64,000 bases of DNA from an uncultured Chloroflexota bacterium (GTDB taxonomy: Bacteria > Chloroflexota > Limnocylindria > Limnocylindrales > CSP1-4). Below are positions 8,871 through 37,562 of this stretch, piece by piece. The stretch covers positions 1,624 to 65,623 of the forward strand of contig CAMTVM010000004.1 of assembly GCA_947085195.1 (NCBI GenBank), written 5' to 3'. Within the stretch, counting starts at the first letter, position 1, and the number at the start of each line of letters is the position of its first letter. A program made the translations under genes and the position numbers. The notes under the pieces are model-generated. The model was not told the origin of the DNA. It searched no databases and saw only the letters and a list, made by a program, of their open reading frames with translations.

Positions 8871-8968
8871 GCATCGAACCGCCGGACACCCGGACCATCG
8901 GTGGAACCGAGTGCGCCCGTGCAGGCGGCACCCGCCCGCGGCCGGTGACACTCGTGCATCGGCGACCC

Positions 8969-9000: not shown

Positions 9001-9058
9001 GGGCGGCAGACCGGAGCCACGCGAGCAACGAGCGGACGAGAAAGGACACAGGCCGGGC

Positions 9059-10786: not shown

Positions 10787-10802
10787 TCGCCGTCACCGCC
10801 CG

Positions 10803-12149
10803 ATGGGGCCGCGCCTGGAGCGGCCGATGAGCGTCCCGCTGCCCGTGCCCGACCCGGTGCCGGCTCATCGGCGTGCTCACCCGTCCAAGCTGTTCGTCGA
10901 GGTCACGACGCGTTGCAATCTCCGCTGTGCGATGTGCGTCAAGTACGCGCCGGGGCAGGGCCTGGTGGAAGGCGACATGACCGAGGAGACGTTCGAGCGC
11001 CTCTCGCCCGCCTTTCCGCTCCTCGAGTCGCTGGTGCTCAACGGCATCGGCGAGCCGCTCCTCCACCGGGGCCTCGAGGGGTTCATCGCGCGCGCGAAGG
11101 CGAGCCTGCCGGCCGATGCCTGGGTCGGCTTCCAGACCAACGGCCAGCTCATCGGCGCCCGCCGCGCGGAGGCGCTCGTGGCGGCTGGCGTGGACCGGAT
11201 CGCGATCTCCGCGGACGCCGTGAGCCCCGAGCGGCTCCGCTCGATCCACGGCGGGGCCCGCCTGGCACCCATCGAGGCCGGCGCGGGGCGCCTCCACGAC
11301 AGTGCCGCGGCCCTCGGGCGGCGACTCTCCCTGGGCCTCGAGTTCGTCGCGATGCGCGACAACCTCGACCAGCTCCCGCTGCTCGTGCGCTGGGCGGCCC
11401 GTCATCGGTTCGAGTTCATCATCGTCAGCCACCTCCTGGCCTACGAGCCGTCGATGGCGGAGCACGCCGCATTCAGCCCCACGTCCGACCGGGCGCTGGC
11501 GGTGTACCGGACCTGGCGCTCCCGGGCAGAGGCTGACGGGATCGACCTCGGTCGCTACCTCGCGTCGCGCCACCGCTTCGCGCCGCCGAAGGAGGATGAG
11601 CGCGCGATCCGGCTGGTGAAGGAGATGGTCGCTGACGCCAGGGATCGCGGCATCTCGCTCAGGATCGCGGACCTGCTCCGCTTCGACGAGGCGTGTCTCG
11701 AGGCTACCGAGGCCGCCTTCACCGAGGCCTCGTCGCTCGCCGCCGAGCTGGGCGTCGAGCTCCGGTTGCCCTCGACCGTACCCACCCAGGTCCGGCGCTG
11801 CGAGTTCGTGGAGGAGGGGTCCGCGTTCGTGTCCTGGGACGGCGGCCTCCACCCGTGCTACTTCCTGTGGCACCGGTTCGACTGCTACCTCGGGGGGATC
11901 GCGAAGACCGTCCGGCCGCGGTCGTTCGGGAATGTCGACGACGCCGGGATCCTCGAGATCTGGAACGGGCAGCCGTGGCGGACGTTCCGGGGCGACGTCA
12001 CCCGATATGACTTTCCGTTCTGCTACGACTGCAACCTCGCGATGTGCGACTACGTCCAGGACGGCGACTTCGAGCAGGACTGTCACCTGGTCCAGGTGCC
12101 GTGTGCGGCGTGCCTGTGGTGCACGGGGCCGTTCCAGTGCCTGCGCTGA
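10803..12149 (+). CDS. radical SAM protein with C-terminal Cys-rich SPASM/twitch-like domain
   Basis: Track ORF. N-terminal CNLRCAMC (CxxxCxxC) and 10 Cys in last 120 aa incl. CYDCNLAMC ... CAAC. 17 nt downstream of aor. Confidence 0.75.
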   Translation: MGPRLERPMSVPLPVPDPVPAHRRAHPSKLFVEVTTRCNLRCAMCVKYAPGQGLVEGDMTEETFERLSPAFPLLESLVLNGIGEPLLHRGLEGFIARAKASLPADAWVGFQTNGQLIGARRAEALVAAGVDRIAISADAVSPERLRSIHGGARLAPIEAGAGRLHDSAAALGRRLSLGLEFVAMRDNLDQLPLLVRWAARHRFEFIIVSHLLAYEPSMAEHAAFSPTSDRALAVYRTWRSRAEADGIDLGRYLASRHRFAPPKEDERAIRLVKEMVADARDRGISLRIADLLRFDEACLEATEAAFTEASSLAAELGVELRLPSTVPTQVRRCEFVEEGSAFVSWDGGLHPCYFLWHRFDCYLGGIAKTVRPRSFGNVDDAGILEIWNGQPWRTFRGDVTRYDFPFCYDCNLAMCDYVQDGDFEQDCHLVQVPCAACLWCTGPFQCLR

Positions 12150-21717: not shown

Positions 21718-22397
21718 TGGACGCTCCGGCCGTCGGGGTACGCGGGGCGCTCGGCGCGCGGGTGGTCGAGCGCTGGCTGCGCCTGGCGGCCGCGGCGATC
21801 CACGAACAACGCGACTGGCTGACCGCGCTCGACGCGGCCATCGGGGACGGAGACCACGGGATCAACCTCGATCGCGGGTTCGCGGGCATCCTCGCCGACC
21901 TCGACGACCCCGACCGCGCCGGAGCCCGCGCATCGTCGGGGACGCTGCTCGTCGCCGCCGGGCGCCGCGTGCTCGGGCTCGTCGGCGGCGCCAGCGGCGC
22001 GCTCTACGGCCGCGCGCTCATCAGGGCCGGAGAGCGCCTCGGCGACGATGCATGGGGCGTGGAGGCCGCCGTCGCGGGGTTTGACGCGGCTCTCGACGCG
22101 GTCGTGTCGCTCGGCCACGCCACGGTTGGCGACAAGACGCTGGTCGATGCGCTCGCCCCGGCACGCGACGCGCTGCGGGTCGCGGGACCAGGGATGGACC
22201 TCCCGACCGCGCTGCGCCGGGCGGCCGACGCCGCGGAAGGCGGGGCGCTGGCGACCGTCCCCCTCGTCGCGCGGAAGGGCCGGGCGAGCTACCTCGGCGA
22301 GCGGTCTGCGGGCCACCAGGATCCCGGGGCCGCGTCGACGGCGATGCTCGTCCGGTGCCTCGCGGACGCGGCCGCGGCCGAGGTCGCCGGCCCCTGA
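21717..22397 (+). CDS. dhaL: DhaL paralog 2
   Basis: C-terminal 226 aa of track ORF 20748..22397(+). LDAAIGDGDHGINLDRGF ... [21 protein letters not shown]. Overlaps dhaM stop. Confidence 0.8.
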   Translation: MDAPAVGVRGALGARVVERWLRLAAAAIHEQRDWLTALDAAIGDGDHGINLDRGFAGILADLDDPDRAGARASSGTLLVAAGRRVLGLVGGASGALYGRALIRAGERLGDDAWGVEAAVAGFDAALDAVVSLGHATVGDKTLVDALAPARDALRVAGPGMDLPTALRRAADAAEGGALATVPLVARKGRASYLGERSAGHQDPGAASTAMLVRCLADAAAAEVAGP

Positions 22398-22705
22398 GTT
22401 CCGGGTTGCGGTGCGGTTGCGAGCCGGTTGTCGACGAGATGTACGAAGTCTTGAGATTTGTCCGGCCGGGGGGCCCGTAGCATGGCTCCAAGCCACCCAT
22501 CCGGATGGGTCGTGTTTCCCGGTGTGCCCCTGCGGAGAAAGCCCGAAGGGGGACCGGCTCCGGTCGGAAAGGAGGACGCCACCGAGCGATCTCGCACCGG
22601 TTCCCGCCTGCGCGGCGCCCGGTCGACGACCGCGAGCAGCCGGCGACGGCACCGGGTCCGTCGTGGCCCGCCAGCGGGCTATCCACCAATGAGGGAGTGC
22701 ATGGC

Positions 22706-23434
22706 ATGACGTGGGATATGAACATCTTCATCGCGGAGGTCTTCGGGACTGGGTTCCTGATCCTCCTCGGTGACGGCGTGGTCGCAGGCGTCCTGCTCGC
22801 CAAGTCCAAGGCGCAGAACGCGGGCTGGATCGTCATCACTGCCGCATGGGCGTTCGCCGTGTTCGTCGGCGTCAGCGTCGCCGGACCGATCAGCGGGGCG
22901 CACATCAACCCGGCCGTCACCATCGGCCTCGCGGTAAACGGCAGCCTCGCACTTGGGCTGGTGCCGGTGTACATCATCGGCCAGTTCGTCGGCGCGTTCA
23001 TCGGCGCCACCCTGGTCACGATCCACTACTGGGATCATTTCAAGCAGACCGAGGACCAGGGTCTCAAGCTCGCGGTGTACAGCACCGGGCCGGGCATCCG
23101 CAACATCCCGCTGAACGTCGTGTCCGAGATCATCGGCACGTTCGTGCTCGTGTTCGTCGTGATGGCGTTCGGCAACAACCAGGGCCTGGCCGGGCTCGGC
23201 CCGCTAGCTGTCGCCCTGCTCGTGTTCTCGATCGGCATGTCGCTCGGCGGGACCACCGGCTACGCGATCAACCCTGCCCGCGACCTGGGGCCGCGGATCA
23301 TCCACGCCATCCTGCCCGTCCCGGGCAAGGGCGGCTCCGACTGGGAGTACAGCTGGGTGCCGGTCGTCGGGCCGATCACCGGCGCCGTGCTCGCGGCGGT
23401 CGTCTACCTCGCCATCTGGAAGCCCCTGTTCTAG
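22706..23434 (+). CDS. glpF: aquaglyceroporin / glycerol uptake facilitator
   Basis: C-terminal part of track ORF 22505..23434(+). Two NPA boxes (HINPAVT, INPARD); GAGGGAG SD before ATG 22706. Confidence 0.85.
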   Translation: MTWDMNIFIAEVFGTGFLILLGDGVVAGVLLAKSKAQNAGWIVITAAWAFAVFVGVSVAGPISGAHINPAVTIGLAVNGSLALGLVPVYIIGQFVGAFIGATLVTIHYWDHFKQTEDQGLKLAVYSTGPGIRNIPLNVVSEIIGTFVLVFVVMAFGNNQGLAGLGPLAVALLVFSIGMSLGGTTGYAINPARDLGPRIIHAILPVPGKGGSDWEYSWVPVVGPITGAVLAAVVYLAIWKPLF

Positions 23435-23521
23435 CTCGCACGGCCACGGGGCGCGCCCGGTCACCGGGTGACGGCGCGCCCCGGACCCCGAGCCCGGCGT
23501 CCGTCGGCCACAGGAGGAACG

Positions 23522-24520
23522 ATGAAGAAGCTCATCAACGCACCCGATCACGTCGTGGACGAGGCACTCGCTGGGATGCTCGCCGCACATCCGGAGCTCA
23601 TCCGGGTCGAGGCGCCGAACATCGTTGTCCGCAGGGACGCGCCCCGGCCCGGCAAGGTCGGGGTGATCTCGGGCGGTGGCTCGGGTCACGAGCCGATGCA
23701 CGGAGGATTCGTCGGGCTGGGCATGCTCGACGCCGCCTGTCCGGGCGCGGTGTTCACCTCGCCGGTCCCCGACCAGATGCTCGCCGCCACCAAGGCTGTG
23801 GACGCCGGCGCCGGGGTCCTGCACATCGTCAAGAACTACACCGGCGACATCATGAACTTCGAGCTCGCGGCCGAGATGGCCCGGGCAGAGGGACACGAGG
23901 TCTCGGCGGTCGTCATCGCCGACGATGTCGCCGTCAAGGATTCGCTGTACACGGCCGGCCGGCGGGGCGTCGGCGGCACGGTGCTCGCGGAGAAGATCGT
24001 CGGCGCGGCTGCCGAGGCGGGTGCGGATCTCGCGACCGTCACGGCGCTCTGCCAGCGCGTCCAGGACAACGTCCGCTCGATGGGCATGGCGCTCACGAGC
24101 TGCACGGTCCCGGCCGCCGGCAAGCCGACGTTCGAGATCGGCGACGACGAGATGGAGATCGGCGTCGGCATCCACGGAGAGCCCGGGCGCACGCGCATGA
24201 AGGTCGCGAGCGCCGACGAGATCACCGGGATGCTCGCCGGGCCCATCCTCGACGACCTCCCCTACCAGCGCGGCGACCGCGTCCTCGCGTTCGTCAACGG
24301 CATGGGCGGCACGCCGCTCATCGAGCTCTACGTCGTGTTCAACAGCCTCGCGCAGATCCTCGAGGGGCGCGGGATCACGATCGCGCGCAGCCTCGTCGGC
24401 AACTGGATCACGTCGCTCGACATGGCCGGGTGCTCGATCACGCTCCTGCGGCTCGACGACGAGATGCTCCGCTACTGGGATGCTCCGGTCATGACCCCCG
24501 CCCTGCGGTGGGGAATCTGA
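23522..24520 (+). CDS. dhaK: dihydroxyacetone kinase DhaK subunit
   Basis: In track ORF 23468..24520(+). [19 protein letters not shown]...[12 protein letters not shown]...; AGGAGG SD. Confidence 0.9.
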
Positions 24521-24569
24521 CCGTCCGCCCAACACCATCACCTCCTACTGGCCGAAAGGACACACGGGC

Positions 24570-25211
24570 ATGGCGTCACGCTTCGCCTACGCCGACGCGA
24601 TCGCCTGGATCCAGTTGCTCGCGCAGGTGCTGCGCGACGCGAAGGAGGAGCTCACGGCCCTCGACTCCGCGATCGGCGACGCCGACCACGGGATCAACAT
24701 GGACCGCGGGTTCCAGGCGGTGCTCGCCAAGCTGCCGACCTACCCCGAGGGGGATGTCGGCGCGCTGCTCAAGGGCGTCGGCATGACGCTCGTGTCCACC
24801 GTCGGCGGCGCCAGCGGCCCGCTCTACGGGACCTTCTTCCTCCAGCTCGGCGGTGCCACCGCCGGGAAGGCGGAGGCCGAGCCCGCGGAGCTGGCCGGCG
24901 CGCTGGACGCCGGCGTCGCCGGGATCCAGCGGCTGGGCAAGGCCGAACCCGGCGACAAGACCATGCTCGACGCGCTGATCCCCGCCCGCGACGCGATGCG
25001 GGCCGCCGTCGACCAGGGGGCGTCGGTCGCCGACGCCCTCGCCGCGGCCGTCGCCGCCGCGGAGCAGGGCATGCTCGCCACCATTCCGCTCGTGGCCCGC
25101 AAGGGACGCGCGAGCTATCTCGGAGAGCGCAGCGCGGGCCACCAGGACCCGGGCGCAACCTCCTCCTACCTGCTGCTCAAGGCCGCATGGGACGCCTTGT
25201 CCAGGGTGTGA
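24570..25211 (+). CDS. dhaL: DhaL paralog 3
   Basis: Track [21 protein letters not shown] ... [21 protein letters not shown]. Confidence 0.85.
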
Positions 25212-25242
25212 CCATGGCCTCGGGCGAACACGGGAGTGCAAC

Positions 25243-26739
25243 ATGACCAAGTACGTTGGCGCCCTCGACCAGGGCACGACGAGCACCCGGTTCATGGTCT
25301 TCGACCACGCCGGCGGCGTCGTCGCGATCCACCAGAAGGAGCACGAGCAGATCTACCCGAAGCCCGGCTGGGTCGAGCACGACCCGATGGAGATCTGGGC
25401 GCGCAGCCAGGAGGTCATCGCGGGCGGGCTCCAGAGGGCCGGCATCACTGGATCCGACCTCGCGGCCGTCGGCATCACCAACCAGCGCGAGACCACCGTC
25501 GTATGGGACAAGACGACGGGCAAGCCGGTCTACAACGCGATCGTGTGGCAGGACACCCGCACGGACGTCTACGTCAACGAGTTCAGCAAGGACGGCGGCC
25601 AGGACCGCTTCCGGGCGAAGGTCGGCCTCCCGCTCGCCACCTACTTCTCGGGCCCGAAGGTCAGGTGGGTCCTGGACAACGTCGAGGGTGCGCGCGCCAA
25701 GGCCGACGCCGGAGACCTCCTGTTCGGCAACATCGACACGTGGTGCATCTGGAACCTCACCGGCGGCGTCAACGGCGGCGTGCACGTCACGGACGTGACC
25801 AACGCCAGCCGCACGATGCTCATGAACCTCGCGACCCTCGACTGGGACGACGAGATCCTGGGCATCATGGGCATCCCGAAGTCGATGCTCCCGGCGATCA
25901 AGGCCTCGTCCGAGGTCTACGGGACGGGCGTCGGCGATCTCGCGGGCGTGCCGATCGCCGGCGATCTCGGCGATCAGCAGGCGGCCCTGTTCGGCCAGAC
26001 GTGCTTCTCGCCCGGAGAGGCGAAGAACACCTACGGCACCGGCAACTTCATGCTCCTCAACACGGGCACCAAGGCTGTCCAGTCCAAGAACGGCCTGCTC
26101 ACCACCCTGGGCTACCAGATCGGCGACCAGCCGGCCGTGTACGCCCTCGAGGGCTCGATCGCCATCACCGGCGCGCTCGTGCAGTGGCTCCGGGACAACC
26201 TGGGGATGATCACCTCGTCGGCCGAGGTCGAGGCGCTGGCCAAGACCGTGGACGACAACGGCGGCGTCTACTTCGTCCCGGCGTTCTCCGGCCTGTTCGC
26301 GCCGTACTGGAAGAGCGACGCCCGCGGCGTCATCGCCGGCCTGACCCGCTACGTCAACAAGGGCCACATCGCGCGTGCCGTCCTCGAGGCGACCGCGTGG
26401 CAGACCCGTGAGGTGCTCGACGCGATGAACGCCGACTCCGGCGTTGATCTCACGGCCCTCAAGGTCGACGGCGGCATGGTCTTCAACGACCTGCTGATGC
26501 AGTTTCAGGCCGACGTCCTCGGCGTCCCGGTCATCCGGCCGAAGGTCGCGGAGACCACGGCCCTGGGCGCCGCCTACGCGGCCGGCCTCGCGGTCGGCTA
26601 CTGGGCGGAGGTCGAGGACCTGCGGGCCAACTGGGCCAAGGACAAGGAGTGGCAGCCCGCCATGGACGCGGCCACCAGCGAGAAGGACTACGGCTTCTGG
26701 AAGAAGGCGGTAACCCGCACCTTCGACTGGGTCGAGTAG
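25243..26739 (+). CDS. glpK: glycerol kinase
   Basis: Track [20 protein letters not shown]...[13 protein letters not shown]... classic FGGY/GlpK. Confidence 0.9.
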
Positions 26740-26812
26740 TCCCCGTTCGGCGAACCCGACGGCCCCGGCCCCTACCAGGGGTCCGGGGCCGTCACCTTAG
26801 TGAGGGCACACC

Positions 26813-27220
26813 GTGAGCCCGGAACCCGTCGCATACGTCGGCCTCGTCGTCGTCTCGCACTCCGCCCGGATCGCGGAGGGCACGGTTGAGCTCGCCCGGC
26901 AGATGGCCGGGTCGGACGTCCCCATCGTGCCCGCCGGCGGCATGGCCGACGGCGCCATCGGCACCGATGCCGCGCGCATCGCGGCGGCGATCGGCGAAGC
27001 CGACCGTGGGGCCGGCGTGGTGGTCGTCGCGGACCTGGGCAGCGCCATCCTCGCGACCCGCACCGCCCTTGAGCTGCTCGGCGGCCCGGAGCACGTCCGG
27101 CTGTCCCGGGGACCGCTCGTCGAAGGTGCGATCATCGCGGCCGTACAGGCGAGCACCGGCTCGGGCCTGGACGAGGTCCTGGAGGCAGCCGAGGGTGCCG
27201 CCTTCCTGCCCAAGGGCTAG
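26813..27220 (+). CDS. dhaM: DhaM-like EIIA-family phosphotransfer protein, paralog 2
   Basis: Track ORF. VGLVVVSHSARIAEG... parallel to 21313..21717 product. Confidence 0.65.
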   Translation: MSPEPVAYVGLVVVSHSARIAEGTVELARQMAGSDVPIVPAGGMADGAIGTDAARIAAAIGEADRGAGVVVVADLGSAILATRTALELLGGPEHVRLSRGPLVEGAIIAAVQASTGSGLDEVLEAAEGAAFLPKG

Positions 27221-27299
27221 AGTTGGACCGGTCCGCCGGCGCGACGGGACCGGCGAGTGACGCAGCCCGGGGCGCACTGACCCGCGGGCACGCAGCGAG

Positions 27300-28994
27300 G
27301 TGACCATCATGGCGGTGCCGCACACCGCGGACGTGCTCGTCATCGGGGGAGGCGCAACCGGCGCCGGCGTCCTCCGGGACCTGGCCCGCCGCGGGCTGCG
27401 CGGGCTGCTCGTCGAGCGGGGGGACTTCGCGACGGGCACGACCGGGCGCTACCACGGGCTGCTCCACTCCGGCGGCCGCTACGTGGCCAAGGACCAGCTC
27501 GCCGCGCGCGAGTGCATCGACGAGAACCGGGTGCTCCGGCGGATCGCGCCCGCGAGCATCGAGGACACTGGCGGCTACTTCATCGCGACGCCCGACGACC
27601 CCGACGACTACGTCGAGGCGTTCGCCGACAACTGCAATGCCAGCGGCGTGGACTGCGACGAGGTCAAGGTCGCGGACCTCCTGGCCAGGGAGCCGGCGCT
27701 CAACCCGAAGACCCGCCGGGCATTCCGCGTACCGGACGGCTCCATCGAGCCCTGGATGCTGGTCGAGTCGATCATCGCGGACGCCCGCCGGCACGGCAGC
27801 GAGGCGCTCACCTACCACCGCGTCATCGGCATGGAGGTCCAGGCGAACCGGATCACCGAGGTGGCCCTGCGCGACGAGCGAACCGGCTCGGTCTCGCGGG
27901 TCTGGACCAGGTTCGTGATCTCCGCGGCCGGGGCCTGGGCGGGCCAGATTGCGGCCTTCGCGAACGTCAGCCTTGAGATGACGCCCGGCAAGGGGACGAT
28001 GCTGATCTACAACCACCGGATGACCGACGCGGTGATCAACCGCTGTCATCGCTCGTCCGACGGCGACATCATGGTCCCCGTCCACACCGTCGCGATCCTC
28101 GGCACCACCGACATCAAGGTCCCCGATCCGGACGACAGCGAGGTCACCCGCGCGGAGGTCGAACGCCTCGTGAGCGAGGGTGCGAAGATGTTTCCGGACC
28201 TGCCGCGGATGCGCATCCTGCGCGCCTATGCGGGCGTGCGGCCGCTCTACCAGCCCCCCGCCGATGCGATCCCAGGCGTGGGCAACCGCTCGATCTCCCG
28301 GGCACACGCGATCCTCGACCACGCCGACCAGGGCGTTGACAACTTCGTCTCGATCGTCGGTGGCAAGCTCACGACCCACCGGCTCATGGCCGAGCAGACC
28401 GTGGACGTCGCCGCGGGCAAGCTGGGCGTCACGACACCCTGCACGACGGCCGACGAGATTCTCCCCGACCAGGAGGCCGGCCACACCTACTGGTTGGGCC
28501 ACCGGCTCGCGGATCACGAGGCGGAGGGGGGCGGCGACGCGGACCTGCTGTGCGAGTGCGAGCTCGTGTCGCGGTCCATGGTGGACGCATACCTGGCCCG
28601 GCACTGGCCGTGCAGCATCGACGACGTCCGGCGCGGGACGCGCGTGGGGATGGGGCCCTGCCAGGGGGCGTTCTGCACGTTCCGGATCGCCGGCCTGGTG
28701 GCGGAGCGCCTGGACGCGCATACCGCGACCACCGGCCGGCCAGCCCCCGGGACGCACGACGCGGACGGACACGGCCCGGGGTCCGGCGCGGCGCACGCCG
28801 CCGTCGCCGACCGCGCGCTGACGGCGTTCCTGCGCGAACGGTTCAAGGGCACCCGGCCGATCGCCTACGGGCGGCAGCTCCAGGAGCTGCTGATGACGAA
28901 CGGCATCTACGTGGGCGTGCTGGGGCTCGACTCGATGGCGTCCGCTCCCGCCCCGCTCGGCGCCGGCGAGGAGGTGCTCGATGCCGCACGCTGA
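27300..28994 (+). CDS. glpA: anaerobic glycerol-3-phosphate dehydrogenase subunit A (FAD, with C-terminal BFD-like Cys domain)
   Basis: Track ORF. ADVLVIGGGATGAG, TGTTGRYHGLLHSG, C-terminal CECELV...CQGAFC. Alternative ATG start 27309. Confidence 0.85.
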   Translation: MTIMAVPHTADVLVIGGGATGAGVLRDLARRGLRGLLVERGDFATGTTGRYHGLLHSGGRYVAKDQLAARECIDENRVLRRIAPASIEDTGGYFIATPDDPDDYVEAFADNCNASGVDCDEVKVADLLAREPALNPKTRRAFRVPDGSIEPWMLVESIIADARRHGSEALTYHRVIGMEVQANRITEVALRDERTGSVSRVWTRFVISAAGAWAGQIAAFANVSLEMTPGKGTMLIYNHRMTDAVINRCHRSSDGDIMVPVHTVAILGTTDIKVPDPDDSEVTRAEVERLVSEGAKMFPDLPRMRILRAYAGVRPLYQPPADAIPGVGNRSISRAHAILDHADQGVDNFVSIVGGKLTTHRLMAEQTVDVAAGKLGVTTPCTTADEILPDQEAGHTYWLGHRLADHEAEGGGDADLLCECELVSRSMVDAYLARHWPCSIDDVRRGTRVGMGPCQGAFCTFRIAGLVAERLDAHTATTGRPAPGTHDADGHGPGSGAAHAAVADRALTAFLRERFKGTRPIAYGRQLQELLMTNGIYVGVLGLDSMASAPAPLGAGEEVLDAAR

Positions 28995-30318
28995 CATCGT
29001 CGTCATCGGCGCCGGGCTCGCCGGGCTCGTCGCGGCCACGCGCCTGGCGGAGGCCGGAGCGGTCGTCACGCTCGTTGCGAAGGGCCACGCCGGGACCCAC
29101 TGGGGCGCCGGCGGCCTGGACGTGGCGGCCCCAGCGGGCGCGGGCACGCCGGCCCAGGGCGTCCGTCACCTCGCGTCGCTGGACCACCCGTACGCCTTCC
29201 TAGCGCCGGACGCGGCGCCATCGGTGGCCTGGCTCCTCGAGCGCCTCGCGGACTCCGGGCTCCCGTACGCGGGCACGCTCGACGCGCCGATCCGGCGCGT
29301 GCCGACGGCGATCGGCGGGACGCGGCGCGTGGCCATCGTGCCCGGCGCACAGGCGCCAGCGCTCCGCCCCTGGGACCCGGGGGAGATCCTCGTCGTCGCC
29401 GGGCCGGCGGGCTTCAAGGACTTCTGGCCGGCCGCAATCGCCGACAGCCTCTCCCGAGAGGACGTGTGGCTCGGCGAGGACCGTCCGGCGCTGGTGCGGG
29501 GGGTCGCCGTCGAGCTGCCGGGCCTCGGCTCGCAGCGCAACCTCAACGCCCTCGCGCTGGCGCACCGGTTCGAGGATCCGGCTCGGCGGGCTGACGACCT
29601 CGACCGGTTCGCGCTGGCCGTGGAGCGCGCGGCGGGTGGCGGCCAGGGGCGCGTCGCGCTCCCGGCGGTGTTCGGTCTCGAGCGCCACGGGGACGTCTGG
29701 GCAGAGCTCAGGGCCCGGCTGCCGCTGGAGCCGTTCGAGGTGCCGCTCGTGCCGCCGAGCATTCCCGGGATGCGCCTGTGGCAGGCGCTTCGCCGCCGGA
29801 TCCGCGACGCGGGCGGCCGAGTGCAGGTCGGCGAGGCGGTTGCCCGGATCGAGGTCGAGCACGGCCGCGTCACCGCAGTCGAGATGGAGGCCGCGACGCG
29901 ACGCCACCGCATCCGGACCTACGCGGTCGTCCTCGCGACCGGCGGACTGGCGGGCGGCGGGCTGGTGGCGACGGCCCACGGCCTCGTGGTCGAGCCGCTC
30001 CTCGGCCTCCACGTCGAGGCGCCGGGCGTCGACGCCTGGCTCATGCGCGATGCGCTCGACCCGGCGGGCCACCCCATCGAGGCCGCCGGCATCCGGACGG
30101 ACCCGGCGCTGCGTCCCCTGGATCCCGCGACGGGGCGCGCCGCCTTCCCCAACGTGCTCGTTGCGGGCGCCATGCTCGTCGGCCAGCGCGCGCTCCGGGA
30201 GCGGTGCGGTGACGGGATCGCCGTCGCCAGCGGCTGGCGGGCGGCCAACGAGCTGGCCGCGGACGCCACGAGGATCCCGATCGACCGCGCGCTGCCCGCC
30301 GTGAGGACCGACCAGTGA
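28981..30318 (+). CDS. glpB: anaerobic glycerol-3-phosphate dehydrogenase subunit B
   Basis: Track ORF. ADIVVIGAGLAGLVAA N-terminal FAD motif; position between glpA and glpC. Confidence 0.8.
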   Translation: MPHADIVVIGAGLAGLVAATRLAEAGAVVTLVAKGHAGTHWGAGGLDVAAPAGAGTPAQGVRHLASLDHPYAFLAPDAAPSVAWLLERLADSGLPYAGTLDAPIRRVPTAIGGTRRVAIVPGAQAPALRPWDPGEILVVAGPAGFKDFWPAAIADSLSREDVWLGEDRPALVRGVAVELPGLGSQRNLNALALAHRFEDPARRADDLDRFALAVERAAGGGQGRVALPAVFGLERHGDVWAELRARLPLEPFEVPLVPPSIPGMRLWQALRRRIRDAGGRVQVGEAVARIEVEHGRVTAVEMEAATRRHRIRTYAVVLATGGLAGGGLVATAHGLVVEPLLGLHVEAPGVDAWLMRDALDPAGHPIEAAGIRTDPALRPLDPATGRAAFPNVLVAGAMLVGQRALRERCGDGIAVASGWRAANELAADATRIPIDRALPAVRTDQ

Positions 30319-31652
30319 CCATCGCCGATCTCGTCCGGGAGGCGGCCGAGGACCGGCACGTGTCGGCCTCGGCGGATGAATGCCTCAAGTGCAACGTCTG
30401 CAACACCGTCTGCCCCGTCCTGCGCGTGACGGACCTGTTCGCGGGACCGAAGTACGAGGGTCCCCAGGCCCAGCGGTTCCGTCTCGCCGGGCTGCAGCAG
30501 ATCCAGGTCCCGGAGTCGACGCACCCCAGGTCTCCCGATCACTCGGTGGACTATTGCTCCGGCTGCGGCTGGTGTACGTCCGCGTGCCCGGCCGGCGTGA
30601 AGATCGCCGAGATGAACAACCAGGCCCGTGGCCGGCTGCGCGAGGGCAAGCGCCCCAGGCTGCGCGACTGGACCCTGGGCCAGACCGACCTGACCGGGTC
30701 GATGGGCGTCCTGTTCTCCCCCCTCGCCAACTTCGCCTTTCATAACCGCGTCGTGCGCGCGGCGTTCGAGGTGGCGATCGGCGTCCACCGCAAGGCGCCC
30801 TTCCCGCAGTTCGCCAAGCGCACGTTCCAATCGACCTGGAAGAAGCGCCAGGCGAAGCGGCTCGATGGCGGCACCCTCAAGAACCGCCCGGGACCCGACA
30901 AGGCCGTCGTGTACTTCCACGGCTGCTCTGCAAACTACTACGAGCCACACGTGGCCGAGGCCGCGATCTGGGTGCTCAAGCGGAATGGCTTCGAGACGAT
31001 CGTCCCGGAGCAGGTCTGCTGCGGCCTCCCGCTGATCAGCAACGGCCTCTACGACGACGCGCGCGAGCGCGCCTGCAGGAACAACGCGGTCCTCGCGGAG
31101 TACGCGCGGGCGGGCTACAAGATCGTGGGCACGTCCACGTCCTGCACCCACACGCTCAAGGCCGAGTACGAGGAGATGCTCGACATGCGTGACGACGACA
31201 CGAAGGCCGTGTCGCACGCGACATGGGATATCTGCGAGTTCCTGCTCGACCTCCACGATGAGGGTCGCCTAGACACCGGGTTCGGCCGGCTCGACGAGGA
31301 CCTCCCCTACCACGCGCCCTGCCAGCTCCGGAGCCACGGCATCGGGCTGCCGGCGCTCGACCTGTTCGCGCTCGTCCCAGGCCTCCGGGCGCGCGACATG
31401 GACCACGACTGCTGCGGCATCGCGGGCACGTACGGGATGAAGAAGGAGAAGTACGACATCGCGATGAAGGTCGGCGCGCCACTGTTCGAGAAGGTGCGTG
31501 CGTCTGGCGCGACCAGCGCGGCCTGCGACTCCGAGACGTGCCGCTGGCAGATCGAGAAGGCGACCGGTGTGCGCACGCGTCACCCGGTGGAGATCCTGCT
31601 CGATGCGTATCGGGCGGGCGACGGCACGAGCTCCGGGCCGCCCGTGCGCTGA
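30315..31652 (+). CDS. glpC: anaerobic glycerol-3-phosphate dehydrogenase subunit C (Fe-S, CCG domains)
   Basis: Track ORF. CLKCNVCNTVCP and CSGCGWCTSACP ferredoxin motifs plus CCG-type Cys clusters. Confidence 0.85.
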   Translation: MTIADLVREAAEDRHVSASADECLKCNVCNTVCPVLRVTDLFAGPKYEGPQAQRFRLAGLQQIQVPESTHPRSPDHSVDYCSGCGWCTSACPAGVKIAEMNNQARGRLREGKRPRLRDWTLGQTDLTGSMGVLFSPLANFAFHNRVVRAAFEVAIGVHRKAPFPQFAKRTFQSTWKKRQAKRLDGGTLKNRPGPDKAVVYFHGCSANYYEPHVAEAAIWVLKRNGFETIVPEQVCCGLPLISNGLYDDARERACRNNAVLAEYARAGYKIVGTSTSCTHTLKAEYEEMLDMRDDDTKAVSHATWDICEFLLDLHDEGRLDTGFGRLDEDLPYHAPCQLRSHGIGLPALDLFALVPGLRARDMDHDCCGIAGTYGMKKEKYDIAMKVGAPLFEKVRASGATSAACDSETCRWQIEKATGVRTRHPVEILLDAYRAGDGTSSGPPVR

Positions 31653-31781
31653 GTGGCGGGCGCCGCCGCGCGCGGCGCGCACGGTCTCGAGACCAAGGTC
31701 CCGATCGGGTGCCGATCGGGATCCGACGATGGTCGGATGGACTCTGGCATCGGACGGTCAGCCCACCGATCATCGATCGGG

Positions 31782-32963
31782 ATGGGCGCCGATCGCGCAC
31801 CCCAGGTCGTGATCGTCGGCGGTGGAGGCACCGGCGGTGCCATCGCCCACGATCTCGCGCTCCGCGGGCTCCGGGTCGTGCTCGTGGAACGGCACGGGCT
31901 CACCTCGGGCACCACGGGGCGCCACCACGGCCTGCTCCACAGCGGCGCCCGGTACGCCGTCAACGACGTCGAAACCGCTGTCGAGTGCATCACCGAGAAC
32001 CGCATCCTGCGCCGGATCTGCCCGGGCTCGTTCGAGGAGAACGATGGCCTGTTCGTAGCGGTCGAGGAGGCGGACATGGCGTACCGCGAGCAGTTCCTGC
32101 CCGCGTGCGAGGCAAGCGGGATCCCCGTCCGCTGGCTCACCCGCAGCCAGGTCCTCAGGCTGGAGCCGAACCTGAACCCGGCACTCCTGGGGGCCGCGCA
32201 GGTGCCCGACGCCACGATGGACGCGATGCGGATGCCGCTCCGGTTCTTCGCGACCGCGCTCGTCAACGGAGCGGACATCCGGCCGTACACCGAGGTCGTG
32301 GGCATGACCGGCTCCGCCGGCAGCGTGACCGGCGTCCGGGTGGTGGACCGCACGACCGGCCGCCGGTACGCAATCGGCGCCGACGTCGTCGTCAACGCCG
32401 CGGGGCCGTGGGGCGAGACGATCGGCCGCATGGGCGGCGCCGACGTGCCGATCCAGCCGTCGCCGGGCGTGCTCGTCGCGCTCCGCGGCCGGCTGTGCAA
32501 CATGGTCGTCAACCGCCTCCACTCGTCCGGCGACGGCGACATCGTCGTCCCGCAGCGCGCTCTCTCGCTCGTCGGCACGAGCTCCTGGGTCGTGGAGGAT
32601 CCCGACGACCTCGCCGTGCCCGAGGACCACGTCGAGCGGATGCTCGTCGAGGGCTCGAAGCTCATCCCGGCCGTGCGCTCGGCGGAGATCCGGGCCGCCT
32701 GGTCGGCCGTCCGGCCGCTCATCGGAAAGCGCGGCGCGTCCACCGGCCGCGCGCTCAGCCGGACCTTCAAGTGCTTCGACCACGCGGCCGAGGGAATCGA
32801 GGGCTTCGTGACGATCTCCGGCGGCAAGGGCACGACCCTGCGCGGCATGGCCGAGGTCACCGCCGACGTCGTCGCCCGCAAGCTGGGCGTGGACGTCCCC
32901 TGCCGGACGCGTGAGGTCGTGCTGCTCCCGCACGACGCGTTCCACCCGGCGAAGGCGGCGTGA
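31782..32963 (+). CDS. GlpA-paralogous FAD-dependent oxidoreductase lacking the C-terminal BFD-like domain
   Basis: In track ORF 31653..32963(+). Shares VVIVGGGGTGG, TSGTTGRHHGLLHSG, NRLHSSGDGDIVVP, ISGGKGTTLRGMAE blocks with glpA above. Start ATG 31782 preferred (alt 31737). Confidence 0.7.
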   Translation: MGADRAPQVVIVGGGGTGGAIAHDLALRGLRVVLVERHGLTSGTTGRHHGLLHSGARYAVNDVETAVECITENRILRRICPGSFEENDGLFVAVEEADMAYREQFLPACEASGIPVRWLTRSQVLRLEPNLNPALLGAAQVPDATMDAMRMPLRFFATALVNGADIRPYTEVVGMTGSAGSVTGVRVVDRTTGRRYAIGADVVVNAAGPWGETIGRMGGADVPIQPSPGVLVALRGRLCNMVVNRLHSSGDGDIVVPQRALSLVGTSSWVVEDPDDLAVPEDHVERMLVEGSKLIPAVRSAEIRAAWSAVRPLIGKRGASTGRALSRTFKCFDHAAEGIEGFVTISGGKGTTLRGMAEVTADVVARKLGVDVPCRTREVVLLPHDAFHPAKAA

Positions 32964-32964
32964 C

Positions 32965-33764
32965 GTGAACACCCTCCGGGGCCCGCCCACCACGTCCGCG
33001 GCCCCGGCGGACCGCCCGGCTTTCTCGCAGCCCGCGCGTTCGTTCCGGATTCTCCGCTTCCGCCGGGGCGACACGAAGCCCCACTGGGACCGCTTCGAGG
33101 CACCCGTGTCATCGGCTTGGACCACCGTCCTCGACGCCCTGGCCTGGATCCGCGCGCACGTCGACCCAAGCCTCGACGTCCGCCACTCGTGCTTCCACGC
33201 CTCGTGCGGCACGTGCGGCATGCGGGTCAACGGCCGCGACGTCCTCGCCTGCGTCACCCGGGTCCACGACCTCGGCGCGGGCGAGGTCATCGTCGAGCCG
33301 CTGCTCAACCAGCCCGTCGTGAGCGACCTGGTCGTGGACATCGAGGCGCTGTACGCCTCGTTCGAGGCCGTGGGCATGCCGCTCGTCCGGCGCTCCGAGC
33401 TCATTCCGGGCGCGCATCCGGCGGAGGGCGTGCCGGAGCTGCAGCGCTTCGAGGACTGTCTCGAGTGCGGGCTGTGCCTGTCCGCGTGCCCCGTCGCGGC
33501 GACGGACTCCGCGTACGCGGGGCCAGGTGTCCTCGCGGCTGCCCGGCGGCTCATCGAGGAGGCGCGGACCCGACACGGGTCTACGGGATCGTCGGCGGGG
33601 AGCAGGGGGCGTGGCGCTGCCACCTTGCCTTCGAGTGCACGGAGGTGTGCCCGTCGGACAGCGTCCCCGCGGAGAAGATCGCGCACCTCCGGCGCGGCCT
33701 GCTCGTCTACTGGCTGCGGTCGGCGTTCGGGCGGGGCCGGGGGACCACGGAGAGCGGGTCATGA
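32965..33764 (+). CDS. succinate dehydrogenase/fumarate reductase-type iron-sulfur subunit (SdhB/FrdB family), interrupted by apparent -1 frameshift near 33566
   Basis: N-terminal 200 aa in track ORF 32911..34314 (2Fe-2S SCFHASCGTCGMRVNG...LAC; 4Fe-4S CLECGLCLSACP). C-terminal 3Fe-4S part (WRCHLAFECTEVCP) in frame of ORF 33117..33764. One missing G in GCGCGG|ACCC would join them. GTG start 32965 right after glpA-paralog stop. Confidence 0.6.
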
Positions 33765-34171
33765 GGATGCGGTCGGAGTCGGGTCGGGCGGACGAAGCGC
33801 GCCGGCGGGGGGTCGCAGGCTGGTTCGACCCGCGCGGTCGACGGCTCGGGGGCTGGGCGTTCGCGCTCAACCGGCTGACCGGGCTCGGCGTCCTCGTCTA
33901 CCTCTACCTCCACCTCGCGATCCTGTCCCGGCTCGCCGGTGGACCGGAAGCGTGGGACGCGTTCGTCGACTTCGCGCTCCACCCGCTCGTCAAGGTCCTG
34001 GACGTCGTCCTGCTCGCCGGCCTGCTCGTCCACGGCCTCAACGGGATCCGGGTGACGCTCGTGGGGCTCGGGATCGTGGTGAGCCGGCAGCGGGCGCTGT
34101 TCGTGGCGCTGATGATCGTGGCCGCCTTGGTGCTCGTGATCGGCACCGTGCGCATCTACGGGGTGATGTGA
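33761..34171 (+). CDS. SdhC-like membrane anchor / cytochrome b subunit
   Basis: In track ORF 33527..34171(+). ATGA overlap with preceding gene; three hydrophobic helices, RLTGLGVLVYLYLHL motif. Confidence 0.6.
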   Translation: MRMRSESGRADEARRRGVAGWFDPRGRRLGGWAFALNRLTGLGVLVYLYLHLAILSRLAGGPEAWDAFVDFALHPLVKVLDVVLLAGLLVHGLNGIRVTLVGLGIVVSRQRALFVALMIVAALVLVIGTVRIYGVM

Positions 34172-34172
34172 C

Positions 34173-34592
34173 ATGGCGACGCCGTCGCTCCCCGTCCGCG
34201 GCCGCCGCGGGCCCACGTGGACGCCCGCGGGGGCGGAGGACGCCGCGGGGGCCGGTCGCGCATCGGCGTGGATGTGGCAGGCGGTTACGGGCGCGGTGCT
34301 GCTCGGTCTCGTGACGCTCCACATGGTGGCGAACCACTTCGTCGTCCCGGAGGGCCTGCGGAACTTCGCCCAGGTCGTCGCGTACCTGTCGGACCCGGTG
34401 ATCGTCGCGCTCGAGGTGACGTTCCTCGTCACCGTCACCTGGCACGGGCTGCTCGGCCTGCGCGCGGTCCTGTTCGACTTCGGGTTCAGCCAGCGGGTCG
34501 AGAAGCGCATCACGCGCATCCTGCTCGTCGTGGGCGCCGCCACGGTCGGGTATGGTCTGTGGGTGACGTCGGTGATCGTCGGCCACACCTGA
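34173..34592 (+). CDS. SdhD-like second membrane anchor subunit
   Basis: Track ORF. Hydrophobic, His-containing helices (LVTLHMVANH, VTWHGLLG). Confidence 0.55.
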   Translation: MATPSLPVRGRRGPTWTPAGAEDAAGAGRASAWMWQAVTGAVLLGLVTLHMVANHFVVPEGLRNFAQVVAYLSDPVIVALEVTFLVTVTWHGLLGLRAVLFDFGFSQRVEKRITRILLVVGAATVGYGLWVTSVIVGHT

Positions 34593-34626
34593 TCCGCGCG
34601 CGGTCACCGCCCTATGGAGGACCCGC

Positions 34627-35694
34627 GTGCCGATCCAGCCGTCCCAGGCGGCCGACCCGATCCACGTCGTCGTGGTGGGTGCGGGCGCGGTCGGGTCGTT
34701 CCTCGGCGGCATGCTCGCGGCCGCCGGGCACGACGTCACGCTGCTCGGCCGCCGCTTGGTGGGCGACAGCGAGGCGGGCACCGTGGTGCTCGAGGGGCCC
34801 AGCGACACTCGGACGGTCCGCGTACGACGCACGCTCGACCCCGCTGCGATCGCGCCGCCGGACCTCGTGATCCCGGCCGTGAAGATGTTCGACCTGGCCG
34901 GCGCCCTCGGCGTGGCCTCGAGATGGTCGGACGCGCCGCTCCTGACCGTCCAGAACGGCGTCGGCGCGGAGGAGGCGGCCCTCGCCGCCCGAACGGCGAC
35001 GGTCCTCGGCGGATCGCTCACGACTGCGGTGGAGCCCGTCCCGGGCGGCGTCCGCCGGCGGCGCACCGGGGGCATGGGCGTCGCGCCGGTCCGGGGGGGA
35101 CCGGATGCCGCCTCGATGGTCGCGCGCCTGGCCGCGTCCTGGACCGGTGCCGGCCTGCCGGCACGCGCGTACGCGGACTGGGCGGCGATGAAGTGGTCCA
35201 AGCTGCTCGCGAACCTCGTCGGAAACGCCACGAGCGCCCTGCTCGACCTCGACCCCTCGACGATCTACGGCGATCCCCGCACGTTCCCGATCGAGCGCCG
35301 GCAGCTGCTCGAGGCGGTGGCGGTGATGCGCGCGATGGGGCACGCGCCTGTGTCCCTGCCCGGCGCCAACGTCGGACTCCTGCTCCAGGGGCTCAGCCTC
35401 CCGGGACCGCTGGCCCGCCCGATCGTCGCGCGGGCGATCGGCGGGGTGCGTGGCGGCAAGTCCCCGTCGCTCCGACTGCACCTGCGCGGCGGCGGCACAG
35501 GCCCCACGGAGGTCCGCTGGCTCAACGGCGCGGTCGCGGAGCACGGAGCTCGCCTCGGGGTGCCGACGCCGGTGAACGCGACGCTCGCAGCGCTCGTGGA
35601 CGAGGCCGCCGCCGACTCCGGCCGTGCCGCCTGGTGGCGCGCCCGGCCGGATCGCCTGCGCGACGCCGTGGACGCGGGAATTCGGGCCGGATAG
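34627..35694 (+). CDS. 2-dehydropantoate 2-reductase family (ApbA/PanE-like) oxidoreductase
   Basis: Track ORF. VVVVGAGAVGSFLGGMLAAAGHDV Rossmann N-terminus and KWSKLLANLVGNATSALL block. GGAGG SD before GTG 34627. Confidence 0.7.
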   Translation: MPIQPSQAADPIHVVVVGAGAVGSFLGGMLAAAGHDVTLLGRRLVGDSEAGTVVLEGPSDTRTVRVRRTLDPAAIAPPDLVIPAVKMFDLAGALGVASRWSDAPLLTVQNGVGAEEAALAARTATVLGGSLTTAVEPVPGGVRRRRTGGMGVAPVRGGPDAASMVARLAASWTGAGLPARAYADWAAMKWSKLLANLVGNATSALLDLDPSTIYGDPRTFPIERRQLLEAVAVMRAMGHAPVSLPGANVGLLLQGLSLPGPLARPIVARAIGGVRGGKSPSLRLHLRGGGTGPTEVRWLNGAVAEHGARLGVPTPVNATLAALVDEAAADSGRAAWWRARPDRLRDAVDAGIRAG

Positions 35695-35709
35695 CGGTCC
35701 GGGGCGCCG

Positions 35710-35715
35710 TATACT
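35710..35715 (+). promoter_or_regulatory. TATACT -10-like hexamer 9 nt upstream of plsY copy-1 start (probable leaderless mRNA)
   Basis: Seen directly; same TATACTC motif repeats before copy 2. Confidence 0.35.
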
Positions 35716-35724
35716 CGGGCCCCC

Positions 35725-36354
35725 GTGGACACCCCGAAGCTGCTCCTCGCGGTTGCGCTCGTGGTGGCGGCATTCGTCATCGGCGGCATCCCGTGGGGCG
35801 TCATCGTCGCCAAGGTCACGGGCGGGCCGGACCCCCGGTCGATCGGGAGCGGCCGCACCGGCGGGGCGAACGTCATGCGCGCCCTCGGCCCACGCCTCGC
35901 GCTCGTCGCCGGGCTGCTGGACGTCGCCAAGGGGGCGACGGCCGTGCTCCTCGCCCGTGCGTTCGACGCCGGCACGGCAGTCGAGGTGGTCGCGGCGCTC
36001 GCGGTGATCGTCGGCCACAGCCGCTCGGTGTTCCTGAGGCTCGGCGGCGGCCGCGGGGTCGCCCCATCGTTCGGCGCGCTGCTCGTGTTCCAGCCGCCGA
36101 TCGCGGGCGTGATCATCGCGCTGTTCATCGTCGTGATCGCCGTGACGAGGTACTCGTCGGTCGGATCGCTCACCGCGTCGGCCCTGGCCGGCGTGCTGCT
36201 GGCGATCGCGACGGCGATCACGCCCCTGGACCCGTGGCTCTACCTGTACGCGGCAGGCGGGGTGGTGCTCATCTGGCTGTTCCACACGGACAACATCCAG
36301 CGCCTGTTCGCGGGGCAGGAACGCAAGATCGGGGCGCCGCCGCCGGGCAGGTGA
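35725..36354 (+). CDS. plsY: glycerol-3-phosphate acyltransferase PlsY, copy 1
   Basis: Track ORF. GSGRTGGANVMRALG and HSRSVFLRLGGGRGVA blocks. Confidence 0.85.
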   Translation: MDTPKLLLAVALVVAAFVIGGIPWGVIVAKVTGGPDPRSIGSGRTGGANVMRALGPRLALVAGLLDVAKGATAVLLARAFDAGTAVEVVAALAVIVGHSRSVFLRLGGGRGVAPSFGALLVFQPPIAGVIIALFIVVIAVTRYSSVGSLTASALAGVLLAIATAITPLDPWLYLYAAGGVVLIWLFHTDNIQRLFAGQERKIGAPPPGR

Positions 36355-36460
36355 GGTCGCGGCTGACCCGGGGCGCGCGGCGTCGTTCGCCGGCAGGCCC
36401 GACCGCCTGGTTGAGGCCCTCGCCGCGTGGCAGGCGAGCCCGCAGGGACCATCTCGGGCC

Positions 36461-36466
36461 TATACT
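36461..36466 (+). promoter_or_regulatory. TATACT -10-like hexamer 8 nt upstream of plsY copy-2 GTG start
   Basis: Seen directly. Confidence 0.35.
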
Positions 36467-36474
36467 CCGCAACC

Positions 36475-37104
36475 GTGGAACCCTTCGACGTCCTGCGCGC
36501 CATCCTCATCGTGGCCGCGGCCTACCTGATCGGCGGCATCCCGTTCGGCGTCATCGTGGCCAAGGTCAGCGGGGGCCCGGACCCGCGCACGATGGGCAGT
36601 GGCCGCACGGGTGGCGCCAACACGATGCGGGCCCTCGGGCCGCGGCTGGCGCTGCTCTCGGGGCTCCTGGACATGCTCAAGTGCACGGTCACCGTGCTGC
36701 TCGCGCGTGCCATTGGCGCCGGCGTCGAGGTGGAGGTCCTGGCGGGCCTCGCGGTGATCATCGGCCACAGCCGATCGCCGTTCCTGGGCTTCGGCGGCGG
36801 GCGCGGCGTCGCGCCGGCCTTCGGCGGGCTGCTCGCGTTCCAGCCGCTGATCGCCTTCGTCGTCCTTCCCGCGTTCATCGGGGTGATCCTGGTCACGCGC
36901 TACTCGTCCCTGGGATCGCTGGTCGGGTCGGCCGTGGCCGGGATCCTGCTGGCAATCGCGACCGCAACGTTCCCGCTGGACCCGTGGATGTACCTGTACG
37001 CCGTGGGCGGCCCGGCACTCGTGTGGCTGTTCCACAAGGACAACATCGAACGGCTCCTGGCCGGGCAGGAGCGCAAGATCGGGACCCCAAGACCCGAGGG
37101 ATGA
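36475..37104 (+). CDS. plsY: glycerol-3-phosphate acyltransferase PlsY, copy 2 (tandem paralog)
   Basis: In track ORF 36427..37104(+). Collinear with copy 1 from VEPFDVLRAILIVAAAYLIGGIPFGV; start reset to GTG 36475 by alignment to copy 1. Confidence 0.8.
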   Translation: MEPFDVLRAILIVAAAYLIGGIPFGVIVAKVSGGPDPRTMGSGRTGGANTMRALGPRLALLSGLLDMLKCTVTVLLARAIGAGVEVEVLAGLAVIIGHSRSPFLGFGGGRGVAPAFGGLLAFQPLIAFVVLPAFIGVILVTRYSSLGSLVGSAVAGILLAIATATFPLDPWMYLYAVGGPALVWLFHKDNIERLLAGQERKIGTPRPEG

Positions 37105-37562
37105 CCCGGGCCCGGTCCACCGGTGAGGCCGTGATCAGCCGGGGATGGTCTCCCCCATCCCGCCGTCGATGAAGGCCTCGAGCGTCACCTTCGAGGCGAA
37201 GCCAGCGGCGGTCTTGACGAACATGGCGGCCGGGCGGGCGTGCAGGCCGCTCGGGTTGAGGACGGTCCGTTCGGCGGTTCGGATGGCACGAGGGTACCGG
37301 ACCCCGCGGGTCGCGACTCAGCCGGCTGCGGGCAGCGCCTCAGCCTGGATGCGCCTGGCGTTCTCGCCCATGACCGCCCGGATCGCAGCTTCGTCGAGGC
37401 TCGCGTCCAGCAGCGCGCCCGTGAGGCGAATGAGGCCGCCAATCGCCGCGATGACGTCAGCGTGAGCGCCGGTAGAGGTTGCGCGCGCACGTCCGCGTGG
37501 CCGCGCGGGCGCCGGTCCAGCAGGTTGCGCCCCAAGAGGAGCGAGTATGCGACCGCTCGTGC

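Follow-up and report, generated by a model that had tools for sequence, protein, structure and literature searches.

A GlpA-like flavoprotein encoded with complex II-type subunits in Chloroflexota and Actinomycetota: a predicted glycerol-3-phosphate:quinone oxidoreductase and its most likely inactivated copy in an uncultured Limnocylindrales bacterium

We analysed a 64,000-nucleotide (nt) stretch of the genome of an uncultured Chloroflexota bacterium (assembly GCA_947085195.1, contig CAMTVM010000004.1), hereafter the window, which has a G+C content of ~72%. All coordinates are positions in this window, and all the genes of its glycerol locus listed here lie on the + strand. A preliminary description, made from the letters of the sequence, had placed four coupled, co-oriented genes directly 3' of a canonical glpABC set (27300-31652), and these we found: glpA' (31782-32963, 393 amino acids (aa)), sdhB' (32965-33764, frameshifted and probably a pseudogene), sdhC' (33761-34171, 136 aa) and sdhD' (34173-34592, 139 aa). 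A single base separates the glpA' stop codon from the GTG start of sdhB' at 32965, the TGA of sdhB' and the ATG of sdhC' overlap as ATGA, and sdhD' starts one base past the stop of sdhC'. The genes had been called operonically fused, but they are separate, merely adjoining and translationally coupled. We consider it probable that the block represents a second type of respiratory glycerol-3-phosphate (G3P) dehydrogenase, of which the copy in this organism is most likely a recently inactivated remnant.

The flavoprotein GlpA' matches Pfam DAO (5.4e-48) and, across 392 aligned residues, has 39% identity with the canonical GlpA of the window. It had been described as a second GlpA paralogue without the BFD-type cysteine domain, and the domain is indeed absent: we obtained no Pfam match to Fer2_BFD in GlpA', whose chain stops at residue 393, with the whole C-terminal domain missing in the alignment. 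There was no Pfam match to DAO_C either, which separates GlpA' from GlpD, the aerobic monotopic G3P dehydrogenase with its C-terminal DAO_C/G3P-oxidase domain. The paralogy needs qualifying, since GlpA' orthologues in other phyla are ~70% identical to it, against 39% for the window's own GlpA; judged by these identities, glpA' is no recent paralogue of the adjoining glpA. Against the GlpA equivalog profile TIGR03377, GlpA' reaches 438 bits, aligned to profile positions 1-379, and falls below the cutoff (552.8) only because of the missing C-terminal domain. The preliminary description had kept open a placement in another family, such as LhgO or sarcosine oxidase. This we ruled out, as TIGR03377 far outscores the competing profiles for L-2-hydroxyglutarate oxidase (44 bits) and ThiO (67 bits), and the flavoprotein falls in the GlpA clade. 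The GlpD profile NF008899 gave 96 bits (cutoff 360). Nor is GlpA' a canonical GlpA, having no BFD domain, a score below the equivalog cutoff and no partnership with GlpBC.

The AlphaFold2 model of GlpA' (predicted local distance difference test score 85) has GlpD and GlpO as its top matches among solved structures, and ends in a long helix (350-367) followed by a short tail. Four motifs that are common to GlpD, GlpO and GlpA (LHSGxRY, RPL, SR and GGKxTxR) do not vary within the glpA' clade. We take these motifs to line the substrate and flavin site in the E. coli GlpD structure, and it is on this assumption, together with the alignments, that we regard the substrate site of GlpA' as conserved. 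By profile and fold comparison, GlpA' is a predicted GlpA-clade, flavin adenine dinucleotide (FAD)-dependent G3P dehydrogenase head, consisting of the DAO fold only.

The second gene had been described as encoding an SdhB/FrdB-family iron-sulfur protein with all three cluster motifs. All three are present in sdhB' (CFHASCGTC...C, CLECGLCLSACP and CHLAFECTEVCP, with the patterns CxxxxCxxC...C, CxxCxxCxxxCP and CxxxxxCxxxCP), but they are split across two frames by a 7-nt deletion that the alignment places at 33555-33566, a placement ambiguous by a few bases. Fer2_3 is matched with 6.6e-26, and the Fer4 matches lie in two frames. An intact orthologue from a related locus (L004; loci are cited here by such numbers) passes the TIGR00384 cutoff of 88 with 172.8 bits; the structures nearest to it are FrdB from E. 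coli (1kf6_B, 1e-34) and Sdh2 from M. smegmatis (6lum_B, 5e-34).

The two small hydrophobic, histidine-bearing subunits are SdhC- and SdhD-like, as had been proposed. SdhC' matches Sdh_cyt (1.3e-11) and Fumarate_red_C (1.7e-8) and has 6lum_C of M. smegmatis Sdh2 as its nearest structure (1.5e-11), SdhD' matches Sdh_cyt (4.6e-12), and the hydropathy profile of each displays three hydrophobic segments. His91 lies within HxxNGxR in SdhC' and within HxxxGxR in SdhD'. Conservation is at least 95% for H51 and H91 of SdhC' (71 sequences) and for H50, H55 and H91 of SdhD' (66 sequences); across 66-77 sequences the same holds for the cysteines of all three clusters and for the histidines of the second transmembrane segment (TM2), H91 in both anchors. 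From these residues, the SdhC'/SdhD' anchor probably carries haem b. We considered a two-haem anchor on account of the extra conserved TM1 histidines and did not retain it: the TM1 histidine of SdhC' aligns with a histidine of SdhC in M. smegmatis Sdh2, a protein that we take to bind a single haem. In agreement with the preliminary description, no SdhA/FrdA-type flavoprotein (FAD_binding_2 plus Succ_DH_flav_C) was found in the block, nor in the typical glpK-glpA'-sdhB'C'D' operons described below, and the absence of SdhA puts the block outside complex II proper.

In order to determine how widely the arrangement occurs, we scanned one genome per species and confirmed 518 relatives, the best 80 loci of which were used for synteny counts. 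All 80 come from metagenome-assembled genomes (MAGs): 55 of Chloroflexota (Limnocylindrales, Anaerolineae and Ardenticatenaceae), 24 of Actinomycetota (Solirubrobacterales among them) and one of Binatia. The expectation that glpA' would co-occur with SdhBCD-like genes elsewhere was borne out. sdhB' lies directly 3' of glpA' in 79 of the 80 loci, the remaining one being a contig end, and sdhC' and sdhD' were found in 72/80 and 70/80; where they were missed, the contig ended or a fusion variant was present. In 59/80 the gene immediately 5' of glpA' is glpK, and the typical operon reads dhaL-glpK-glpA'-sdhB'-sdhC'-sdhD'-dhaM(-apbA-plsY). Since glpC occurs upstream in only eight of the 80 loci, which make up the window's sub-clade, GlpA'-SdhB'C'D' is in most loci the only glpK-adjacent G3P dehydrogenase. 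In that sub-clade the order is dhaL-glpK-dhaM-glpABC-glpA'-sdhB'C'D', as against dhaL-glpK-glpA'-sdhB'C'D'-dhaM in most others (compared in L013-L031), a difference which suggests the insertion of a dhaM-glpABC segment or a rearrangement of the region. Gene content, domain families, conservation of the ligand and histidine motifs and a strict linkage across phyla are thus matters of direct observation.

Given the near-universal co-occurrence with SdhB/C/D-like genes, usually 3' of glpK, the gene family is best understood, as far as sequence allows, as a complex II-style G3P:quinone oxidoreductase. The adjacency to glpA' could also be incidental, with SdhB'C'D' serving another flavoprotein, either a distant SdhA or the SdhA-like GlpB, a member of the FAD_binding_2 family whose gene lies 1.5 kb upstream in the window. 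We hold this to be exceedingly improbable: glpB is absent from most loci and glpC is found upstream in so few, across phyla the glpA' stop either overlaps the sdhB' start or is separated from it by 1 nt, and the glpA'-sdhB' linkage persists down to 44% identity.

The last point comes from distant relatives (44-50% identity), drawn from a library of 50%-identity representatives, which retain the glpA'-sdhB' pairing. In L086 (45% identity) the order is glpK-glpA'-sdhB'C'D' with overlapping stops and starts. In a Bacillota MAG (L087:4491-8935), glpK and glpA' (409 aa, 50% identity) are followed by a 571-aa protein with Fer2_3, Fer4_8 and Sdh_cyt, a fusion of SdhB' with its anchor which indicates that the iron-sulfur (Fe-S) subunit and the anchor act together. 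A further variant occurs in four MAGs of Solirubrobacterales/Actinomycetes and Binatia (L057, L063, L081 (6977-9769) and L082), where glpA' is followed by a single protein of 530-640 aa with Fer2_3, Fer4_8 and CCG domains, in which SdhB is joined to a cysteine-rich domain of GlpC/HdrD/TfrB type; these loci have no SdhC or SdhD and glpK does not adjoin. The same domain order is found in TfrB of thiol:fumarate reductase, from which this variant, absent from the window, differs in having GlpA' rather than TfrA as its head. The short DAO proteins of 42% identity or less that we examined had unrelated neighbours or belonged to fragmented canonical glpABC sets. Among the long representatives examined (580-994 aa) there was no natural GlpA'-SdhB' fusion: these were DAO alone, GlpA with a BFD domain, or GlpA-GlpB fusions. 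Several apparent GlpA-GlpB fusions, DAO followed by FAD_binding_2, were among the best matches (P0136 and P0157, ~950-1000 aa). Twenty cluster look-ups in the same library returned no archaeal name.

Two further distant members have no glpK. L093:1-7626 (44% identity) encodes GntR and a LIV-type ABC transporter and then DAO-sdhB'C'D', and L092:4011-6937 a GFO/IDH/MocA oxidoreductase and then DAO-SdhB', with no anchors. On the strength of these contexts, the substrate may be other than G3P in parts of the family. They also lend some colour to the idea that GlpA' in general oxidises a hydroxy- or amino-acid-like compound rather than sn-glycerol-3-phosphate, SdhB'C'D' being a generic quinone-reducing module, and so does the score of GlpA' below the TIGR03377 equivalog cutoff. 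We nevertheless regard this as unlikely. GlpA is by far the top family match of GlpA', and the GlpD/GlpO/GlpA motifs are kept even in L092 and L093; glpK stands immediately upstream in those 59 of the 80 loci and also in L086 and L087, and dhaKLM, glpF and plsY flank the block.

We then compared the lesion in sdhB' among loci. The part of sdhB' with the 2Fe-2S and CxxCxxCxxxCP motifs runs in one frame from 32965 to ~33560, and the part with CxxxxxCxxxCP (~33561-33764) is in the -1 frame. In the alignment, the gene is 7 nt shorter near 33560 than the intact genes of L004 and L005 (266 and 262 aa). In 74 related loci, 162 nt separate the second cysteine motif from the W-x-C of the third, and a spacing of 155 nt is restricted to the window and to L001-L003. 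The latter are separate Logan assemblies of the same organism (ERR4904396, ERR3478701 and ERR3478703), each 1-2 single-nucleotide polymorphisms (SNPs) from the window across the 2.8-kb block; they have the identical 7-nt deletion, and in none of the three was sdhB' called as a gene. An intact sdhB' is found in L004, L005, L006 and L008, of which L006 (87% GlpA' identity) and L008 (85%) are the nearest other species.

High-GC sequence is error-prone, and clear indel errors occur in other MAG loci (L006 and L062, both apparently long-read, and L091), which might make the frameshift an artefact of sequencing or assembly, with the gene intact in the cell. That the window and three separately assembled read sets, differing from it by SNPs, have the deletion in common, and that a 7-nt loss is atypical of homopolymer error, makes this very unlikely in our view. 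Split genes were seen elsewhere as well: glpK, dhaM and glpA in L006, and fragmented glpA and glpB in L091; the motif spacing of sdhB' is 163 nt in L062, and sdhD' of L034 appeared as two high-scoring segment pairs. These are probably assembly indel errors, and other real decay events are possible.

The shift might also be bypassed in the cell, by programmed -1 ribosomal frameshifting or by making the two halves as a split protein, which would leave the module functional here. The cysteine ligands are complete in both halves, glpA', sdhC' and sdhD' are intact with unaccelerated divergence, and a Shine-Dalgarno-like GAGGAGG string lies at the junction. Against this, 33541-33580 contains neither an X XXY YYZ slippery heptamer nor a homopolymer, no ATG, GTG or TTG precedes the third cysteine motif in the downstream frame, and the upstream frame stays open to 34314, crossing sdhC' and sdhD'. 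None of ~80 other species has the shift, which indicates that the junction is no conserved recoding site, and we consider a bypass hardly credible.

Inactivation is therefore the reading we prefer, on the grounds that the same deletion is present in three assemblies and in no other species. A relative-rate comparison of amino acids found GlpA', SdhB', SdhC' and SdhD' of the window no farther from the outgroup than those of L008; divergence has not accelerated in the window's lineage, which argues that the lesion is recent and speaks against a long-term decay of the module. Most likely, then, the window's copy is a redundant module that was inactivated recently, with an intact glpABC at its side, although GlpA' on its own might retain some activity in this organism. 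The preliminary description, which had read the block as a G3P:quinone enzyme with a GlpA head on succinate:quinone oxidoreductase-type subunits, had itself named the frameshift as a weak point, and we judge it to be real and organism-specific. Synteny and profiles uphold that reading for the gene family; at the window locus, where sdhB' is broken, function is not upheld.

In an intact member of the family, where complex formation, electron path, quinone and substrate are all predicted, G3P would be oxidised to dihydroxyacetone phosphate (DHAP) on the FAD of GlpA'. Electrons would pass from GlpA' to the [2Fe-2S], [4Fe-4S] and [3Fe-4S] clusters of SdhB' with neither a BFD domain nor GlpBC involved, the ferredoxin-like [2Fe-2S] N-domain of SdhB' taking over the role of the BFD-type domain of canonical GlpA. 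SdhB' would be mounted on an anchor of SdhC' and SdhD', three helices each, probably with haem b, for which both TM2 histidines would be the likely ligands; after [4Fe-4S] and [3Fe-4S], a quinone, presumably menaquinone, would be reduced at the SdhB'/C'/D' interface. Phyla of the kind in which GlpA' loci are found, Chloroflexota and Actinomycetota, generally use menaquinone, and menaquinone is also the quinone to which the nearest relatives of SdhB' are linked. The transfer of electrons from G3P to menaquinone would be exergonic, the potentials being near -190 mV for G3P/DHAP and near -75 mV for menaquinone (PMC11962113 supplement).

Several points weigh against this interpretation. For every member of the family, complex formation is a proposal drawn from synteny, and we know of no structural precedent for a DAO-fold head docked onto SdhB. 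The 7-nt deletion was recognised in assemblies rather than in reads. The lack of glpK in L092 and L093 counts here too. Finally, a truncated GlpA from S. acidocaldarius reduces quinone directly in vitro with no Fe-S partner (PMC11962113 supplement), which implies that an Fe-S relay is not strictly needed for activity.

The preliminary description knew of no characterised enzyme with this architecture. None has indeed been characterised biochemically, yet the design itself is on record: Schmerling et al. 2025 (Commun Biol 8:539, Fig. 9b; PMC11962113; preprint 2024) reconstructed a 'GlpA-SdhBCD (T. pendens)' complex from synteny. Within the literature library searched, no further paper mentions a GlpA-SdhBCD arrangement. 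In Thermofilum pendens (the Tpen_1127 cluster), as in the bacteria analysed here, a GlpA-clade protein of DAO fold with scant C-terminal extension is followed by homologues of succinate dehydrogenase b, c and d; the Thermofilum GlpA is reported to be almost without such an extension (PMC11962113). For both, the proposed role is to anchor the enzyme in the membrane and to pass on electrons during glycerol catabolism. Our comparison relies on gene order and on the published description, and both systems are biochemically uncharacterised. They differ in that the archaeal one was described for Thermofilum-related species only, whereas the present type is bacterial, with matches in 518 species representatives, and in that the module of the window coexists with glpABC and is broken. 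Broken sdhB' aside, the block would fit the synteny-defined GlpA-SdhBCD type. The same paper states that bacterial glpA co-occurs consistently with glpB and glpC (PMC11962113), a statement which the present loci contradict for large bacterial groups.

With the GlpABC enzymes of E. coli and haloarchaea, represented in the window itself, the predicted enzyme shares a homologous catalytic domain (39% identity), presumably the substrate, and a route for electrons to the quinone pool through Fe-S clusters. GlpA' has no BFD [2Fe-2S] domain, however, and in place of the flavoprotein GlpB and the peripheral GlpC (Fer4 plus CCG) there would be a three-cluster SdhB' and the integral-membrane SdhC'D'. 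To complex II, as represented by FrdB of E. coli (1kf6) and Sdh2 of M. smegmatis (6lum), the likeness lies in the cluster motifs of SdhB', the gene order B-C-D and the pair of Sdh_cyt anchors, each of three helices and with its TM2 histidine conserved; the differences are that SdhA/FrdA is absent, that the DAO-fold head comes from an unrelated flavoprotein family, and that the predicted substrate is no dicarboxylate. The characterised GlpA-CoxG of Sulfolobus acidocaldarius (PMC11962113) is similarly a truncated GlpA-clade enzyme with no BFD domain or GlpBC and with a membrane partner other than GlpC. Its CoxG-like anchor has no redox centres and it reduces quinone directly (PMC11962113), whereas the partners in the present module carry three Fe-S clusters and probably haem.

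The block lies within a larger set of glycerol genes. It is preceded by glpF/MIP (22505-23434; Pfam MIP), dhaK (23468-24520; Pfam Dak1), dhaL (24570-25211; Dak2), glpK (25243-26739; FGGY) and dhaM/EIIA-man (26813-27220; EIIA-man), the last three matches having been made on orthologous loci. Canonical glpA (27300-28994, 564 aa) matches Pfam DAO and Fer2_BFD and exceeds the TIGR03377 cutoff with 584.7 bits; glpB (28981-30318) matches Pfam FAD_binding_2 and glpC (30315-31652) Fer4_8 and CCG. This set encodes an intact and probably redundant G3P dehydrogenase. A scan of 22000-37500 on both strands for promoter and terminator consensus sequences gave no match and is uninformative on co-transcription.

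On the 3' side of the block lie a gene for an ApbA/PanE-like reductase (34627-35694; TIGR00745, 141.4 bits), plsY (35725-36354; PF02660 G3P_acyltransf, matched on L001) and a second plsY (36427-37104; PF02660 G3P_acyltransf, called on L001). The tandem plsY copies are 70% identical, and the close relatives L004 and L005 have a single plsY. In many loci the glycerol operon is likewise followed by a reductase gene of the ApbA/PanE family and then plsY, and in L091 this pair lies 3' of canonical glpABC; the reductase could be a DHAP reductase that makes G3P for lipid synthesis. Farther away, the window encodes a GltD-like protein with Fer4_20 and Pyr_redox_2, an aldehyde:ferredoxin oxidoreductase (AFOR_N plus AFOR_C) and a radical SAM/SPASM protein (7267-12149), as well as a pyruvate phosphate dikinase on the minus strand (1906-4758).

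Since the architecture itself has already been described, its breadth in bacteria may best be seen as adding hundreds of bacterial species to the few archaea of a predicted, uncharacterised enzyme type, so that the type is not confined to Thermofilum-type archaea. Judging from their domain content, the GlpA'-SdhB' class would include variants with an SdhB-CCG fusion, with an SdhB-anchor fusion or with no anchor, and some members without glpK. We find the case evenly poised for the broader proposal that GlpA'-SdhB'C'D' is a genuine respiratory enzyme class and the main G3P:menaquinone oxidoreductase of many soil and freshwater Chloroflexota and Actinomycetota, modular in build and with some members feeding other substrates. 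At present the genes are annotated only as 'FAD-dependent oxidoreductase' and 'succinate dehydrogenase' subunits, a likely misannotation that can inflate tricarboxylic acid cycle and complex II calls in metabolic reconstructions of MAGs. In the window, where glpABC and GlpA'-SdhB'C'D' coexist, one species appears to have started losing the latter. If the proposal is true, it would identify the G3P dehydrogenase on which abundant uncultured Chloroflexota (Limnocylindria and Anaerolineae) and Actinomycetota chiefly rely, and the complex II chassis of SdhB and SdhCD would be seen to accept the catalytic head of an unrelated flavoprotein fold, a clear instance of modular evolution among respiratory enzymes.

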